The notes beneath the pieces are model-generated. The model was given only the letters and a program-made list of their open reading frames with translations, was not told where the DNA came from and ran no database searches. 64,000 nt of DNA, taken from positions 1,455-65,454 of the forward strand of contig VGWI01000005.1 in assembly GCA_016873655.1 (NCBI GenBank). The letters run 5' to 3'. Shown here piece after piece: positions 58,525 through 64,000 of the stretch; the first letter of the stretch is position 1; each line of letters starts with the position of its first letter. Position numbers and translations under genes: made by a program. This DNA comes from Lentisphaerota bacterium (GTDB lineage: Bacteria > Verrucomicrobiota > Kiritimatiellia > UBA8416 > VGWI01).

Positions 58525-58615
58525 GGAGAGGTGACCGAGTGGCCGATGGTGCAGCACTGGAAATGCTGTGTACCCCTAAAGGGTACCGCGGGTTCAAATC
58601 CCGCCCTCTCCGCCA
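58525..58615 (+). tRNA. tRNA-Ser (anticodon GGA)
   Basis: GGAGAGGTGACCGAGTGGCCGATGGTGCAGCACTGGAAATGCTGTGTACCCCTAAAGGGTACCGCGGGTTCAAATCCCGCCCTCTCCGCCA. A class II tRNA with a long variable arm, anticodon loop CTGGAAA, and an encoded CCA. Confidence 0.9.
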
Positions 58616-58622
58616 GCCTTCG
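58570..58622 (+). repeat. direct repeat copy 1 (3' half of tRNA-Ser plus 7 nt)
   Basis: 53 nt. It differs from copy 2 only in the variable-arm loop (CTAA here, GCAA in copy 2). The last 43 nt (AGGGTACC...GCCTTCG) are identical. Confidence 0.85.
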
Positions 58623-58623
58623 C

Positions 58624-58938
58624 ATGAAACAGTCGACACGCGAGTCCGCCTGGTCGGTGTACGTTCTCTACAGCCCAAGCGCCAAGCGCACCTACGTGGG
58701 CTGTGCGCACGATGTGGCGGCGCGTCTCACTCAGCACAATGCCGGTAAGGTGAGCGCCACGCGCCGAGGCGTGCCCTGGCACGCCGTGCATACGGAACAT
58801 GTAGGGGAGTATGTGTTGGCTGTGCGCCGTGAACGGTACTACAAGAGTGCCGCGGGCCGGCGTCGTCTCAGGGCCATCCTCCCGGCGCTCGATGCAAGGC
58901 TAACGTCACGTCCTGCGCCCGCGACGCCAGCGACGTGA
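58624..58938 (+). CDS. GIY-YIG (URI-domain) nuclease family protein
   Basis: 104 aa. WSVYVLYS....RTYVGCAHDVAARLTQHNAG.........PW....E......A..RE...K is the short stand-alone GIY-YIG pattern. It starts 8 nt after the tRNA. Confidence 0.8.
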   Translation: MKQSTRESAWSVYVLYSPSAKRTYVGCAHDVAARLTQHNAGKVSATRRGVPWHAVHTEHVGEYVLAVRRERYYKSAAGRRRLRAILPALDARLTSRPAPATPAT

Positions 58939-58977
58939 GGCAGCGCGGCAGGAAATGCTGCCCGCCCCGCTCCGCGG

Positions 58978-59060
58978 GGCGAGGTCTCGCCTCTGCCCGA
59001 AGGCAGAGGCGGATGTACCCCGCAAGGGTACCGCGGGTTCAAATCCCGCCCTCTCCGCCA
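58978..59060 (+). other. tRNA-Ser-derived tRNA-like element or remnant
   Basis: GGCGAGG can pair 6 of 7 positions with the 3' CCTCTCC. There is no D-arm. A 10-bp hairpin (CGCCTCTGCC-cgaa-GGCAGAGGCG) replaces the anticodon arm. The variable arm, T-arm and CCA are intact. Confidence 0.35.
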
Positions 59061-59067
59061 GCCTTCG
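59015..59067 (+). repeat. direct repeat copy 2 (displaced 3' half of tRNA-Ser, att-like)
   Basis: See copy 1. It lies at the left edge of the accessory island. Confidence 0.85.
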
Positions 59068-59243: not shown

Positions 59244-60158
59244 CTACGAAACGACGAAGCACTCGACCCTGTATTGGGTGCAAAGATCGCGGATGCCCGG
59301 GGAGATCGAGTGTGCAACGAGGAACGCCCGGCCCTGGCCGTGCTTTTGCTCGTGTGTGAGTTCCAGCATGGCTCGGTACTTCAGTGCCTGGAGAACGCCG
59401 GGCAGATCGAGGTCGCCAACACGGAGTTCAATTTCCACGCCGATGATCCGGCCCAGTGAGTCCTCAAGTACGATGTCCGCACGGTCGCCGGTTGGGAACG
59501 AGGATTCGACTTTGACAGTGCGCAGTCCCGCTTCACCCAGCACGGCCGAGGGGTCGGCGGCGACGCGTTCCTTGAGGTGCTTGTGTTCGGGAGATTCGCC
59601 GCCGGTGCCACGGACACGGGGAGAATGCTTCTTTCGCAGGGCCCTCGTCACGAGGTCTGACCGGCCAGCCCGACGCTTGAAGATTGCGACCAGCGTTTCG
59701 TACTCCTCTTTGCTGATCCGCTTCAGGCCTGACTTGCGGTCGCCGAATCCGCGAAGGTTGTAGCTGGGCTTGTAGCCCAGGACGCGGTTGAGTTCTGCGC
59801 GCTGAACGAATCCGTTCGACGAAAGCAGTTCGGTGGCCGCCTGCCAGCACCAGCAGATCTCGGTGCCATCGACGTACCTTGTAACGGTTGTGTCCGGATT
59901 TCGGTGGATTCCCTCAAGGGCGCGAGTGACAGCAACGATGCCTTCTTTGCCCCGCACGGACTTCACCGCATACGTCGAGCCATCAGCCTTCTCTCTCAAC
60001 TCGGTCCGGCCTGAACGGGATTCATAGATGAGCACAGGGTCATCGGCGTGTAGTTGCACGCCAGCCTGCTGTCGCCCGTCGGGCAGCCAGACGCCGGACG
60101 GCTCCCGCTTCGAGTTGTCCGCGCGTGGTGGCCAGTGAGTTGTGATCCAGTAGTTCAT
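59244..60158 (-). CDS. PUA-like (EVE/ASCH-type) domain fused to a NucS/DUF91-like PD-(D/E)xK nuclease domain
   Basis: 304 aa from the ATG at 60158. The N-terminus has NYWITTHWPP...DDPVLIYES...EGIVAV, an EVE-like beta-barrel pattern. The C-terminus has SPEHKHLKERVAADPSAVLG...TGDRADIVLEDSLGRIIGVEIELRVG...GVLQALKYRA, a restriction-endonuclease-like core. The usual Lys position appears to be Arg. Confidence 0.55.
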   Translation of the reverse strand: MNYWITTHWPPRADNSKREPSGVWLPDGRQQAGVQLHADDPVLIYESRSGRTELREKADGSTYAVKSVRGKEGIVAVTRALEGIHRNPDTTVTRYVDGTEICWCWQAATELLSSNGFVQRAELNRVLGYKPSYNLRGFGDRKSGLKRISKEEYETLVAIFKRRAGRSDLVTRALRKKHSPRVRGTGGESPEHKHLKERVAADPSAVLGEAGLRTVKVESSFPTGDRADIVLEDSLGRIIGVEIELRVGDLDLPGVLQALKYRAMLELTHEQKHGQGRAFLVAHSISPGIRDLCTQYRVECFVVS

Positions 60159-60169
60159 GAGGCGGCCGG

Positions 60170-61360
60170 TCAGGTTGCCAGCACGCGGCGCACCTGATTC
60201 TTGCCCAACAGCTGCCAAAGTATCCGATGATCGTCGGCCTCGTGTCGGATGCGGCCGGCGACGATAGCCGGCGAGATGCGTAGCTCAGCGGACAATGCCC
60301 GGATCTGTGCCGCGGTGGAGTGACAGTCCAGGCGGGCGCCCTGCCAGGCCGACTCTGGAATGAGTGCATCGGACGCCAGGCGGTCGGCGTCGCGCTCCAT
60401 GGGTGACGTTCCACCCGCTTCGAGATCGTCGAAGAATGCTTCCGCGCCGCCCTCCAGATGCAGGGCCACGTGGGCCAGTTCGTGCGCCAGTGTGAACCAG
60501 AAATTGTCCAGGCGGTCGTATCTGAGTGTGAGGGCGATCAAGGGGCGCTCATCGGGCATGATCAACGCCGCGCCGTCGAGGTATGTCTTCGGAAGGTGCT
60601 TTTCCGCGAGCAGGTGGATACCACTCTTCGCCAGGTACTCACGGGCCAACATCACGCCGTCCTCGAAATAGCTCAATCGGGCCACCTCACGCATGAAATC
60701 GAGGGTGACGGTTCCGGGGGCATAGGGTGACACCTCTTGCTCGGTCGCCAGATGCATGACGCGTATTTTCCAAGCGCAGAGCGCGTAAGGATCCATCTCC
60801 TTGCCGTCTCTAACATGCTGCCGGGCGCACATGGGTAGCGCCACGTCTTCCTCAAAGGGCTCGGAGAACCTGCGCATGATATCTTCCGCATGTTCACGTA
60901 CGCACTGCGCAGAGCCCGGAAACTCGATCCAGCCCCGCTTACGCATTTCCACGACAGGGAAACGACCCCACTCGATATCGATGGCGGTATCCGGCAACGC
61001 AGCGTCATCCTCTCCGAGCAGAGATGAGGCTGGGATGCCCAGTCCCTTATGCAGGCGGCGCATCATGGACAGACTCAGCGCCCGCTTGCCGGAGAGAACT
61101 TCGGACACCCGGCTGGCAGTGCCAAGGTAGGGAACCAGATCCTTCTGCTTCAGGCCGGACTGCTCCATACGGAACTTGATCGCCTCGATGGGGTCCGGAA
61201 GCGGAATCGGATGGACCTTGTCCTCGTAGAGCTGAATCAGCGTCGCCCACACATCTAGTTCCGCCTCCTCCGGGGAGCCCGGCTCGGCATCCATGAGCTG
61301 CTCGACGTAGGCCAGAGCCGTGTCGTATTGCTCCTCGTTCTTGATGACAAAAGGCTTCAT
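60170..61360 (-). CDS. HigA-like HTH antitoxin fused to an ImmA/IrrE (DUF955) zinc metallopeptidase
   Basis: The N-terminus has NEEQYDTALAYVEQL...GTASRVSEVLSGKRALSLSMMRRLHKGLGIP, which is HigA/XRE-like. The C-terminus has FTLAHELAHVALH (HEXXH) ...ERDADRLASDALIP. The ATG at 61360 follows GGGAGGGG. Confidence 0.8.
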   Translation of the reverse strand: MKPFVIKNEEQYDTALAYVEQLMDAEPGSPEEAELDVWATLIQLYEDKVHPIPLPDPIEAIKFRMEQSGLKQKDLVPYLGTASRVSEVLSGKRALSLSMMRRLHKGLGIPASSLLGEDDAALPDTAIDIEWGRFPVVEMRKRGWIEFPGSAQCVREHAEDIMRRFSEPFEEDVALPMCARQHVRDGKEMDPYALCAWKIRVMHLATEQEVSPYAPGTVTLDFMREVARLSYFEDGVMLAREYLAKSGIHLLAEKHLPKTYLDGAALIMPDERPLIALTLRYDRLDNFWFTLAHELAHVALHLEGGAEAFFDDLEAGGTSPMERDADRLASDALIPESAWQGARLDCHSTAAQIRALSAELRISPAIVAGRIRHEADDHRILWQLLGKNQVRRVLAT

Positions 61361-61383
61361 CGCTTGACCCCTCCCGCAGGCGA

Positions 61384-61677
61384 TCACACCGTCGTTACGT
61401 CGATTCTGTCATACTCGGCATGTGTGCCGATGAACCGGACGTACATCACCCCGGTATTGTAGTGCACCTTGACCACCAACCGGTGCTTGTTGCCACAGAT
61501 GTTGAAGACCACCCGATTCCCCGCCACGATGCTCGCGTTCCCGTACTGCGCCTTGATCTCGGCCGGTGTTAGCCACGCCGCATGCTCCGCCTCCGCGTAC
61601 CACGCCAAGAGCGCCTGTTTGGCATCCGGATTGCGCTCCCAGAATTCGCGAAGCGTCTTCTTCTTGATTACCCGCAT
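61384..61677 (-). CDS. higB: HigB-family (RelE-fold) mRNA interferase toxin
   Basis: 97 aa. NRVVFNICGNKHRLVVKVHYNTGVMYVRFIGTHAEYDRID closely parallels the E. coli HigB pattern (VFNVGGNELRVV....YIREVMTHKEYD). Confidence 0.85.
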   Translation of the reverse strand: MRVIKKKTLREFWERNPDAKQALLAWYAEAEHAAWLTPAEIKAQYGNASIVAGNRVVFNICGNKHRLVVKVHYNTGVMYVRFIGTHAEYDRIDVTTV

Positions 61678-61680
61678 GAG

Positions 61681-61727
61681 AATATTCCCATATCACGCGC
61701 CACCATGCAACAGCTATTTCCCAATAT
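61681..61727 (-). promoter_or_regulatory. pair of AT-rich TTCCCA(A)TAT boxes upstream of higB (candidate operator/promoter)
   Basis: AATATTCCCATAT (61681-61693) and TATTTCCCAATAT (61715-61727), within 50 nt upstream of the higB start in otherwise GC-rich DNA. Confidence 0.3.
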
Positions 61728-61860
61728 GGTAACTGCGTGCTTGCCCCCCGCTACGCATGCTGCCGGCTTCTGCTTCTTGCCGGTCGGCGGTCATCGGACC
61801 GCCGGCCCGCTTGAGCAGATCCTTGGCGGCTGCTTTGAATGACATCAGTTTTGTGGTCAT
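61714..61860 (-). CDS. 48-aa hypothetical ORF translationally coupled to the EVE gene
   Basis: The ATG overlaps the EVE stop (ATGA), and the GGAGGAAG inside the EVE 3' end serves as a Shine-Dalgarno. Sequence: MTTKLMSFKAAAKDLLKRAGGPMTADRQEAEAGSMRSGGQARSYHIGK. No family recognised. Confidence 0.3.
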   Translation of the reverse strand: MTTKLMSFKAAAKDLLKRAGGPMTADRQEAEAGSMRSGGQARSYHIGK

Positions 61861-62288
61861 GGGGCTTCCTCCGAGAGGGCCAGGACCGCATCGAACTCGG
61901 CGGGTGCGACGGGCATCACGGCGAGACGGGGGCGATGAACAAGGGGAAAAGTGGCGAGTGCGGGTGCAGTCTTGATCTTGGCCAGGGGCACAGGCCGTGC
62001 AAGCGTCTTGACCGGACGGAAATCGCAGGTCAGCCAACGCGGGTCCGAACTGGTCGGATCGGGACGGGCGCTTCCGCTAACTTCAAGAACGCCCACGACT
62101 GCCATTTCGCGTTGGCTGTGGTAGTAGAGAACGCGATCGCCGGGACGCATGGCGGCAAGATTGTTTCGCGCCTCTGGATTTCGGACCCCGCGCATAGCGA
62201 AGGAGCCGCGCCGGACAATCTCGGCCCAGGAGGTCCGGAAGGGCGCGAATTTGATCAGCCAGAAGGCCTTTTTTTCAGGTGTTGACAT
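61857..62288 (-). CDS. stand-alone EVE-domain protein (PUA-like modified-base reader fold)
   Basis: 143 aa. FWLIKFAP......W........GVRNPEARNNLAAMRPGDRVLYYHS....AVVGVLEV......DPT.......W...D..PV......PV.LA.IK....L..FPLV...RLAVMPV matches the canonical EVE pattern. Confidence 0.85.
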   Translation of the reverse strand: MSTPEKKAFWLIKFAPFRTSWAEIVRRGSFAMRGVRNPEARNNLAAMRPGDRVLYYHSQREMAVVGVLEVSGSARPDPTSSDPRWLTCDFRPVKTLARPVPLAKIKTAPALATFPLVHRPRLAVMPVAPAEFDAVLALSEEAP

Positions 62289-62346: not shown

Positions 62347-62652
62347 TTAGGGCGCGTTCGAAAGAGCGCGCCTCGTTTTTTGTGCCTCCGCGTACCGACG
62401 GTGCCACTTGGCTATATTGGGGCCTGTTGGGTATGCAGTCTTCAGAAGGAACCCGCTGCGTGCTAACGCTTTAACAATGACCACATAGCGCACGCCCGGG
62501 TGCCAGACATTCCAGTAGCGACTCGATTGTCGCGGCTCCCACCAGACTTTCAACGTCGACCAATTGGTGATCACTGGCCGAATCCATGGAATGCGCGTCA
62601 ATCGATCCACAGTCGGATTCGCACGGGCAGTCTCTGGTTGCCCTTGTGTCAC
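62347..62652 (-). CDS. hypothetical Trp-rich 101-aa ORF
   Basis: The GTG start overlaps the stop of the truncated SNF2 ORF (GTGA). There are 8 Trp in 101 aa (..IPWIRPVITNWSTLKVWWEPRQSSRYWNVWHPG..). No family recognised, and coding status is uncertain. Confidence 0.35.
   Translation of the reverse strand: MTQGQPETARANPTVDRLTRIPWIRPVITNWSTLKVWWEPRQSSRYWNVWHPGVRYVVIVKALARSGFLLKTAYPTGPNIAKWHRRYAEAQKTRRALSNAP
62350..62381 (+). terminator. plus-strand intrinsic terminator with no plus-strand gene upstream
   Basis: GGGCGCGTTC-GAAA-GAGCGCGCCT forms a 10-bp stem including G-U pairs, with a GNRA tetraloop. It is followed by CG and TTTTTT. Confidence 0.5.
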
Positions 62653-64000
62653 GACATGCCAATATCCGAGAAGGCCGTAAAGACGATCACCTTGCGGTTT
62701 CCGTCATTCAGGGGGGCGTCGATCTTGCCCTGTATCAGCCGCTTCAGTTCCTGAAACTTGGCGTCCCGGTCCGGCGTAACAGCCGCGGCCTTTTCATGGA
62801 TGGCGATAAGCTGCTTGCGATCCTTGTTGAGATCCCTCTTCCACTTCTTGCGGTCGATGTGCTCCAACTTGATCTGGATCTTCTTCCCGACCATCAGGCG
62901 TTCGAGCAGGGCGGCTTCCTCTTCCTCCCCCTGGTCCTTGAAAAGGTCCGGGCTGGTATACTTGTCCAGGTTGCCTTCGAAGTGATCGATCTTCTGCAGG
63001 AGATCGTCGATCTTCTTGATCGTGCGGTCGATGGAGACTTCGAAGCTGTGGATACTGCTTTCAAGCCGCTTGAGGTAGTTCGTCCGCATCATGCCGATAA
63101 GGTAGAACTCGCGCTGCTTCTGGTCTTGCAGGACCGATACGTCTTCCGCCGCATCCGGGTACTGTGAAATGGCGTCCGGCAGGATGTACGCCGTCGGGTT
63201 GAAGATGGTCAGCTTGTATTCCGAGATGGCTGAGTGCAGTTCATCGTACGACGGGAAATAGCCTTTCAGGTCCGTGACAGGATGCAGGGCGATCGGTTTG
63301 AGCCGCCTCGGGAACTCGCCAATGCCCTTGCTTCCGTAGTAGTCGATGATGTGCTTCCGGGATCGGGAGATCGTCAGCTCATCGAGCAGTTTGAAGAAGG
63401 TGGAGTCCAGGGCATCGAGCAAGCGGTTCACTTTGCGATCGGGGTTCTTCTTCGGATCGGCCCACTGCGTGAACTGGGTTTGGGCGTTCTTCATCACCTG
63501 CGAGATGCTTGAAACCTGCAGAGAGTCCTGGAAAGCCGTGTCCACGTCCTGCGTGATGAGAAGGAGCTGGTTTCGGAGATCCTTGAGACTGTTGTTGACC
63601 GGGGTCGCGGAAAGGAGCAGCACTTTCGTATCCACCCCGGTCTGGAGAACGCGATCCATAAGGAACTCATAGCGTGTGATTCGGCGTGTGCCGTCTTCGC
63701 GTTCCGTGCCCCGCGCGCTGTTCCGGAAATTGTGCGACTCGTCAATGACCACCAGGTCGTAATTGCCCCAGTTGTGGGTTTCGTAGGTGTCCCGCCCGAG
63801 GTCGGTATGCGCGAGGACTCGATACGCGAAACGGTCTCCCAGCAGCGGGTTCCGCGTGTCGTTCTCGCGGTAGATGTTCCAGTTGTCTTCGAGTTTCTTG
63901 GGGCAGAGAACAAGCACCCGGCCGTTGAGTAACTCGAAGTACTTGATGACGGCCAGCGCCTCGAATGTCTTCCCCAGGCCCACGCTATCGGCAACGATGC
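62649..64000 (-). pseudogene. SNF2-family helicase, 5' end outside the window, apparently truncated before the helicase C-terminal lobe
   Basis: (I)VADSVGLGKT motif I at the window edge, VVIDESHNFRN motif II, LLLSATPVNN motif III, and a long insertion. The ORF stops at ...NRKVIVFTAFSDIGMS, exactly where motif IV (helicase C) normally begins. GC is visibly lower than in flanking DNA. Confidence 0.6.

Follow-up and report, generated by a model that had tools for sequence, protein, structure and literature searches.

A defence island beside a tRNA-Ser gene of a Lentisphaerota bacterium probably stacks independent modules, including PD-lambda-2 A and B genes and an EVE-like/NucS-like nuclease gene

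We analyzed a 64,000-nt stretch of DNA from a Lentisphaerota bacterium (assembly GCA_016873655.1, contig VGWI01000005.1, positions 1,455 to 65,454; hereafter the window, to which positions refer unless another locus is named) and, in it, a run of five open reading frames (ORFs) on the minus strand at 59244-62288. In the direction of reading, the run comprises a stand-alone EVE gene (143 amino acids [aa]; 61857-62288), a micro-ORF (48 aa; 61714-61860), a gene for a HigB/RelE-fold protein (97 aa; 61384-61677), a gene for an Xre-type helix-turn-helix (HTH) domain fused to an M78 (ImmA/IrrE) metallopeptidase (396 aa; 60170-61360; hereafter HTH-M78), and a gene for an EVE-like reader joined to a NucS-like PD-(D/E)xK nuclease (304 aa; 59244-60158). 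The successive gaps are -4, 36, 23, and 11 nt, and the single overlap is the ATGA shared by the EVE stop codon and the micro-ORF start codon. A preliminary description had reported this layout correctly and had proposed that the five genes form one composite defence operon, in which two readers of modified bases bracket a toxin/protease switch. Its domain assignments are largely sound. The first gene encodes a canonical stand-alone EVE protein (Pfam EVE, 1.3e-33, match spanning the full length), the third a protein with a HigB domain (PF09907, 1.2e-31), and the fourth an HTH-metallopeptidase fusion (Peptidase_M78, 7.7e-10; HTH_3, 1.3e-4) with an intact HELAH motif, in which H292, E293, and H296 are invariant. 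For HTH-M78, the gene callers and the PADLOC model favor the ATG start that yields 396 aa; the longest ORF, from a GTG at 61387, has 405 aa.

The HigB-like and HTH-M78 proteins match the PADLOC models PD-Lambda-2_A (4.2e-44, positions 1 to 96 of 97) and PD-Lambda-2_B (2.3e-143, positions 4 to 397 of 402). On the basis of these strong matches, we identify them as components A and B of PD-lambda-2. The preliminary description had not recognized its gene combination as a named system; this is inaccurate for the HigB/HTH-peptidase pair. Component C is absent; no window protein matched PD-Lambda-2_C or Beta_protein in the PADLOC and Pfam searches, in which true C genes were recognized in seven other loci. 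In Escherichia coli, PD-lambda-2 consists of three genes, of which B is toxic alone and is neutralized by A, while C, a relative of the P4 Beta_protein (PF14350), is needed for defence (Vassallo et al. 2022, PMC9519451). Because B, not A, is the toxic component there, the label "HigB toxin" may be reversed for this family. The window resembles PD-lambda-2 in its gene order (a HigB-like gene followed by the Xre-HTH/M78 fusion) and its tight spacing (a 23-nt gap), and differs from it in the lack of Beta_protein ("P4 phage antitoxin-like") and in the unrelated EVE-nuclease gene in the third position. It also differs from canonical HigBA, in which the partner is an HTH-only HigA of ~100 aa instead of a 396-aa protein with an M78 domain, and the toxin and antitoxin roles are the reverse of those reported for PD-lambda-2. 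The resemblance to ImmA/ImmR, IrrE/DdrO, and CapP/CapH is limited to the pairing of an M78 metallopeptidase with an HTH repressor function (the peptidase domain gives a weak PADLOC capP match, 4e-10); in the window, HTH and protease reside in one polypeptide, and the partner is HigB-like.

The two genes appear to travel as a mobile cassette (60167-61733, minus strand) that includes the ~55 nt lying upstream of higB. In a blastn comparison, window positions 61733-60167 align with positions 1231-2796 of another locus (L125) at 87% nucleotide identity over 1,567 nt, with sharp ends and unrelated flanks; the 3' end of the cassette lies 3 nt beyond the B stop codon. The upstream region (61678-61733 in the window; 1231-1286 in L125) moves with the cassette. 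It contains two ATGGGAA(A)TA copies upstream of higB, which may serve as the operator bound by the HTH of B. A GAATAT (-10-like) sequence 4 nt before the higB ATG suggests a leaderless transcript. We do not claim the TTGCAT-17-GAATAT arrangement before higB as a promoter, although it is conserved in L125, because its -35 element matches the consensus at only three of six positions; a scan of the operon for promoter and terminator consensus sequences found nothing above the shuffled expectation. By analogy with E. coli PD-lambda-2, the cassette is most likely an autoregulated toxin-antitoxin/abortive-infection module.

The five genes are not conserved as a unit. We compiled 47 loci of the 304-aa nuclease family from other lineages (41 from a one-genome-per-species scan, together with L126-L128 and L137-L139 from look-ups of the closest homologues) and searched their flanks with tblastn and profile hidden Markov models; HigB, the peptidase, Beta_protein, and an EVE protein of the window type were found in none of the 47. 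The 112 Pfam-annotated neighbors of this family were heterogeneous and included type I restriction-modification components, GmrSD, kinases, and TPR proteins. In 80 metagenomic loci of the B peptidase (L045-L124), a HigB gene precedes B in 68 of the 70 loci whose sequence extends far enough to tell, and both the 304-aa family and the window-type EVE are absent from all 80. Outside the window, the complete block of five genes was seen solely in three contigs of this organism, all identical to the window. The nearest relatives agree with this pattern: the closest nucleases (86%, 80%, 64%, and 60% identity) occur without the cassette, and the closest B proteins have other downstream genes or none (L125, 92% identity, a HARE-HTH stub and then a 23S_rRNA_IVP-like gene; L133, 80%, nothing within 500 nt; L135, 76%, an unknown 199-aa gene, with housekeeping genes around). 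A five-gene composite system is thus not supported, and co-occurrence elsewhere, by which the preliminary description had itself proposed to judge the idea, is not found.

The micro-ORF, which had been counted as an operon gene, has homology confined to its codons 1 to 25 (61786-61860). Its start matches positions 1 to 20 of the 71 positions of Pfam HARE-HTH (E value, 0.066) and is 72% identical over 25 aa to an intact 420-aa HARE-HTH+Mrr_cat protein of L139 and 67% identical over 27 aa to the corresponding protein of L126, after which the sequences diverge. Its stop codon lies inside the conserved upstream region of the cassette. A tblastn search of the window with intact HARE-HTH-Mrr proteins found no further Mrr or Mrr_cat sequence; therefore, the rest of the Mrr gene is gone rather than shifted, and a frameshift origin of the micro-ORF was rejected. 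Since only the start aligns, the stop codon belongs to the cassette, and no other Mrr sequence is present, the micro-ORF is, as judged from these alignments, a pseudogene stub of a HARE-HTH-Mrr_cat restriction gene.

The relatives of the nuclease gene indicate what may have preceded it. In L126 and L139, whose EVE-nucleases are 80% and 64% identical to the window protein at the amino acid level, the EVE-nuclease gene is immediately preceded by an intact HARE-HTH+Mrr_cat gene (gaps of 50 and 10 nt, respectively), and neither locus carries the toxin-antitoxin cassette. Window positions 60161-59256 correspond to positions 3584-4489 of L126 at 78% nucleotide identity (81% for L137/L138), and in every comparison the homology begins 3 nt before the nuclease ATG. 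The B stop codon is separated from this ATG by 11 nt (CCGGCCGCCTC) that contain no Shine-Dalgarno sequence; GAAGGAG or AGGA is present upstream of the gene in the relatives. Given that the native upstream region is lost and that the junction lacks a Shine-Dalgarno sequence, expression of the nuclease is probably cassette dependent. In L125 (1231-2949, compared with 60167-61872 of the window), the same cassette also lies beside a HARE-HTH-Mrr 5' stub, in a permuted order.

The 304-aa protein consists of an EVE-like domain (residues ~1 to 165) and a NucS-like PD-(D/E)xK domain (~185 to 304). An alternative TTG start at 60218 would extend the ORF; this codon is not conserved among the homologues. 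The preliminary description had assigned both domains and had made its proposal depend on a PUA/EVE fold of the N-terminal one, and structure prediction bears this out. The AlphaFold2 model, built from an alignment of 46 sequences, is of high quality (predicted local distance difference test score, 92.8; predicted template modeling score, 0.86). In Foldseek searches against the PDB, its N-terminal half matched five EVE structures (2hd9, 2p5d, 5j3e, 2gbs, and 1zce; i.e., PH1033, MJECL36, human THYN1 bound to 5-methylcytosine DNA, Rpa0253, and Atu2648; E values, 5e-6 to 5e-4) with template modeling scores of up to 0.66 on the target, and YTH domains scored more weakly than these. The whole protein matched VcaM4I (6yex), an EVE-HNH modification-dependent enzyme. 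The best matches overall, across most of the model, were the NucS/EndoMS structures 5gke and 2vld (E value, 2e-6), and the nuclease domains of Can2/Card1 were also matched; the element common to these matches is the PD-(D/E)xK fold of the C-terminal half.

Profile comparisons are less strong but agree with the model. Pfam EVE passes its threshold on the equivalent domain of one family member, P0074 (25.6 bits; cut-off, 23), and hhalign aligned the family with a canonical EVE alignment over the full EVE domain (E value, 1.3e-4; probability, only 54%). P0074 (461 aa) was also considered as a fusion of a canonical EVE domain to a family member; this was rejected, since the Pfam EVE match (residues 158 to 252) is the family's own N-terminal domain. 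The match therefore supports the EVE assignment of the family domain and provides no tie to the 143-aa EVE protein. For the C-terminal part, Pfam NucS_C falls just under its threshold (2.5e-4). Orthology with NucS was rejected: NCBIfam NF003270 and NF002876 scored 26.9 bits (cut-off, 216) and 20.4 bits (cut-off, 252), respectively, and only on that part. Residues D225, D228, E242, Q257, K260, and Y261 are invariant in the 46 sequences, the window protein included, and E244 is nearly so; the N-terminal aromatic residues W4, W9, Y45, Y95, W103, and W105 are invariant or near-invariant across the family. The family profile gave only chance matches to PDB sequences (E value, ~0.3), and a BFVD fold search with the protein returned only weak single-domain matches.

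The family comprises 258 homologues of ~300 to 330 aa from many phyla in a set of 5.8 billion proteins, and an exhaustive profile search retrieved 188, 763, and 1,625 cluster representatives at E values of ≤1e-30, ≤1e-10, and ≤1e-3, respectively. No match was found in plasmid or phage collections by tblastn. In proteins P0441-P0497 and loci L034-L038 and L040-L041, the EVE-like N-terminal domain was also seen as many stand-alone proteins of ~165 aa, and P0458, a longer protein of 511 aa, carries it only in residues 1 to ~174. Some family members of ~430 to 448 aa share a recurrent unannotated N-terminal extension of ~128 aa. The N-terminal extensions of P0019, P0079, P0106, L014, and L017 contain no recurrent known domain; that of L017 is an HTH, possibly a longest-ORF call that merges an upstream HTH gene.

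The family has no characterized member. Its architecture places it close to the EVE-PD(D/E)XK proteins, a recognized class of predicted type IV enzymes (Bell et al. 2020, PMC7641849), and to the characterized EVE-HNH enzymes VcaM4I and TspA15I (Lutz 2019; Pastor 2021). Like these, the 304-aa protein has an EVE/PUA-fold reader, with its conserved aromatic residues, at the N terminus and a nuclease at the C terminus, and its gene adjoins no intact methyltransferase gene. The operon itself has no methyltransferase gene (a truncated type III methyltransferase fragment ~5 kb away in locus L001 is the closest), and N6_Mtase accounts for only 2 of the 112 annotated neighbors of the homologues. Unlike VcaM4I and TspA15I, the protein carries a NucS-like PD-(D/E)xK nuclease in place of HNH, and its EVE domain, which has an inserted hairpin, is too divergent for the Pfam model. 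It shares the fold and motifs of its catalytic domain with NucS/EndoMS but has an EVE-like N terminus instead of the NucS DNA-binding/dimerization domain and is found in a defence context, not a repair context. A further parallel is END-Mag, in which a NucS-like nuclease and an inactive EndoIII sensor restrict phages that carry modified G (Yee et al. 2025 preprint, PMC12191111). There, too, a NucS-like PD-DExK effector is joined to a sensor of non-canonical bases, as predicted for the 304-aa protein, although the sensor is iEndoIII instead of EVE-like and the domain order differs. On the strength of the model and these comparisons, we predict that the 304-aa protein is a self-contained modification-dependent (type IV-like) restriction enzyme.

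The 143-aa EVE protein belongs to a conserved subfamily (504 homologues, many at 60 to 70% identity), whose close members sit after Eco57I/PglX-like, AIPR, and AAA_15 genes. Partnerships between stand-alone EVE genes and SNF2-nuclease genes are known (Bell et al. 2020), and the position of these homologues after large restriction genes fits the reported partnership with such genes, SNF2-nuclease fusions included. As in the reported associations with SNF2-nuclease and type I restriction genes, the EVE gene of the window lies just downstream of a gene for a PLD nuclease joined to an SNF2 ATPase (718 aa; 3' part at 62649-64000, minus strand, running past the window end; 3523-5679 in L001). This gene differs from the reported partners in lacking the Helicase_C part, and the archaeal partners (COG1743 methylase and DUF499) are not seen intact here. 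The 718-aa protein matches PADLOC HKD+Snf2 (4.8e-62, positions 31 to 625 of 948) and the Pfam families PLDc_2, RE_NgoFVII, and SNF2-rel_dom, with no Helicase_C match; its gene is thus probably truncated, with the Helicase_C third missing.

Further remnants surround these genes. Between the PLD-SNF2 gene and the EVE gene, a 101-aa ORF (62347-62652, minus strand) begins at the stop codon of the former, is not called as a gene in L001, and matches the C-terminal part of PDC-M04B (PADLOC, 1.8e-12, positions 66 to 159 of 162), a PADLOC candidate-defence protein; it is probably a gene remnant. A GC-rich palindromic hairpin with a T-run on the plus strand (62350-62373) lies between this fragment and the EVE gene and may insulate the latter from upstream transcription. 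The ATGA overlap couples the EVE gene to the dead Mrr stub and not to the cassette. Decay elsewhere in the island includes a type III methyltransferase fragment and a 127-aa type III restriction endonuclease fragment. Farther upstream, L001 contains the type III fragments and an HTH_17 (AlpA/excisionase-like) gene.

At the other end of the run, a tRNA-Ser(GGA) gene was detected with ARAGORN (58525-58615, plus strand), and a repeat search located two copies of a 54-nt repeat on the plus strand (58569-58622 and 59014-59067) that are identical at 52 of 54 positions. The first copy is the 3' half of the tRNA gene, and the second, which forms an att-like island boundary, ends 176 nt from the stop codon of the 304-aa gene. 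The att-like repeat beside the operon, noted earlier, is therefore real, but its copies flank a different gene, one for a 104-aa GIY-YIG protein (58624-58938; PF01541, 2.7e-10). We rejected the repeats as ends of the operon because they enclose the GIY-YIG gene only. This gene is the sole content of the 445-bp unit between the copies (58569-59067), which may represent a minimal insertion that targets the tRNA and separates its gene from the defence island. The G+C content is ~0.65 to 0.68 before the second copy and 0.55 to 0.62 past it.

Taken together, we consider it probable that the locus is a heavily recombined defence island at a tRNA-Ser gene that stacks independent modules and not one five-gene system. 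Its parts are of known kinds (i.e., PD-lambda-2 A and B without C, an uncharacterized EVE-PD(D/E)XK family, an accessory EVE, and a dead Mrr gene). Since the A and B parts belong to a named system, the components are not co-conserved, and the micro-ORF is a stub, the proposed placement of a switch between two readers reflects an accident of recombination. In the history that we propose, the ancestral upstream partner of the nuclease in this subclade would have been a HARE-HTH-Mrr_cat gene, of which the first ~25 codons are left. A mobile PD-lambda-2 A/B cassette would then have taken the place of the remaining Mrr gene, so that its end is now 11 nt from the nuclease ATG. The nuclease gene would most likely use the cassette promoter for its transcription, and its translation would be coupled to that of B. 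As suggested by its fold, the EVE-like pocket of the 304-aa protein, lined with conserved aromatic residues, would bind a flipped modified base in incoming DNA, and the NucS-like PD-(D/E)xK domain would then cut the bound DNA; host DNA would be spared because it lacks the modification. Within the cassette, B would be toxic and A neutralizing, by analogy with E. coli PD-lambda-2, with the Beta_protein gene absent here. The stand-alone EVE would represent a subfamily that usually trails large restriction-type genes and that here follows the truncated PLD-SNF2 gene and the PDC-M04B fragment.

Several observations weigh against this reading of the island. The 11-nt junction between B and the nuclease gene is tight, and A, B, and the nuclease gene are intact amid decayed neighbors, which would fit selection for a three-gene unit. 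In L125, the cassette again lies beside a HARE-HTH stub, on the opposite side and with the Mrr gene cut at codon 43 instead of codon 25; because of this permuted arrangement, a single simple insertion is an insufficient explanation. Sampling was limited to 80 of the >7,900 B homologues (E value, ≤1e-10), mostly on short contigs. Furthermore, among the 70 B loci with at least 400 nt of downstream sequence, 29 have a same-strand gene within 60 nt after B, and recurrent families are found in this position, i.e., Beta_protein (7 loci), an HSDR_N-type PD-(D/E)xK nuclease with or without SNF2 (7 loci), and an N6_N4 methylase (3 loci), in addition to a DprA/PsyrA-like protein and several unknown genes. 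In 16 of the 80 B loci, the flanks contain HsdR-like genes. These recurrent downstream families suggest that the cassette may work with variable nucleic-acid enzymes.

One alternative concerns the cassette alone, which could be a selfish addiction (stabilization) module that has no phage-defence role and landed here by chance. Its great abundance, its diverse contexts (including a position between housekeeping genes in L135), its sharp boundaries, and the occurrence of the defence-required canonical C gene in only 7 of 70 loci all suit a selfish element. However, E. coli PD-lambda-2, whose A and B proteins are homologous to those here, acts in defence in experiments (Vassallo et al. 2022), and restriction and methylase genes are repeatedly found next to the cassette; we regard the explanation as doubtful, with a real chance of being right.

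Another alternative, which we consider unlikely, is a three-gene variant of PD-lambda-2, in which the EVE-nuclease replaces Beta_protein as sensor/effector next to HigB and HTH-M78. The self-repressing HTH-protease would free the expression or activity of the nuclease and of the toxic partner upon infection, and the EVE gene and the Mrr stub would be bystanders. This proposal draws on the cassette-dependent expression expected from the 11-nt gap without a Shine-Dalgarno sequence, the intactness of all three genes, the CapP match of the peptidase domain, the requirement of PD-lambda-2 defence for a third gene, and the variable yet recurrent genes after A/B, among which are the HSDR_N-type nucleases. 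Against it, the pairing is confined to one lineage (the three identical contigs) and absent from the 47 nuclease and 80 B loci, the nearest relatives of B have other downstream genes or none and those of the nuclease lack the cassette, and the rate of tight downstream genes (29/70) is close to ordinary operon density. Moreover, members of the 304-aa family mostly occur by themselves, as a type IV enzyme that needs no partner would. Two related claims follow similar lines. That the HigB/HTH-M78 cassette is a portable controller or guard placed directly upstream of restriction-type nucleases seems improbable at present; its partner would be the EVE-NucS enzyme here and an HsdR-type nuclease, a methylase, or a Beta_protein at other loci. 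That it works with variable third genes, the nuclease having been co-opted here, we hold to be about as improbable. If the controller reading is true, PD-lambda-2 would be one case of a modular architecture with A/B and a variable C, and the window would contain a new variant of three genes: upon infection, the HTH-protease would cleave itself and thereby lift the repression of a type IV nuclease.

An integrated five-gene system, in which the EVE and EVE-nuclease readers bracket a HigB toxin and a protease switch and act together with them, is highly improbable: the co-directional genes with their small gaps and ATGA overlap, the two real EVE-type domains, and the reported presence of EVE domains in toxin-antitoxin and restriction contexts (Bell et al. 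2020) are as it would predict, but the components were not found together outside this organism, the micro-ORF is a gene fragment that reads into the upstream region of the cassette, the overlap ties the EVE gene to a dead gene, and the EVE homologues follow other large restriction genes.

The recombined island is a worked example of how tight spacing inside a defence island does not equate to one system. At its junctions, a mobile toxin-antitoxin-like cassette appears to have overwritten one restriction gene and captured the next. Two leads stand out as most useful, namely, the EVE-NucS nuclease family and the seemingly modular third gene that follows HigB/HTH-M78 pairs. With regard to the latter, the canonical PD-lambda-2 third gene follows only ~10% of the sampled pairs, and detection rules that demand A, B, and C together probably overlook most of the diversity of this module. 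With regard to the former, the 304-aa protein defines an uncharacterized family of EVE-like plus NucS-like proteins that is phylogenetically wide but rare (~190 clusters at an E value of ≤1e-30). It is a plausible candidate for a new modification-dependent restriction enzyme and possibly for a tool to map modified bases.

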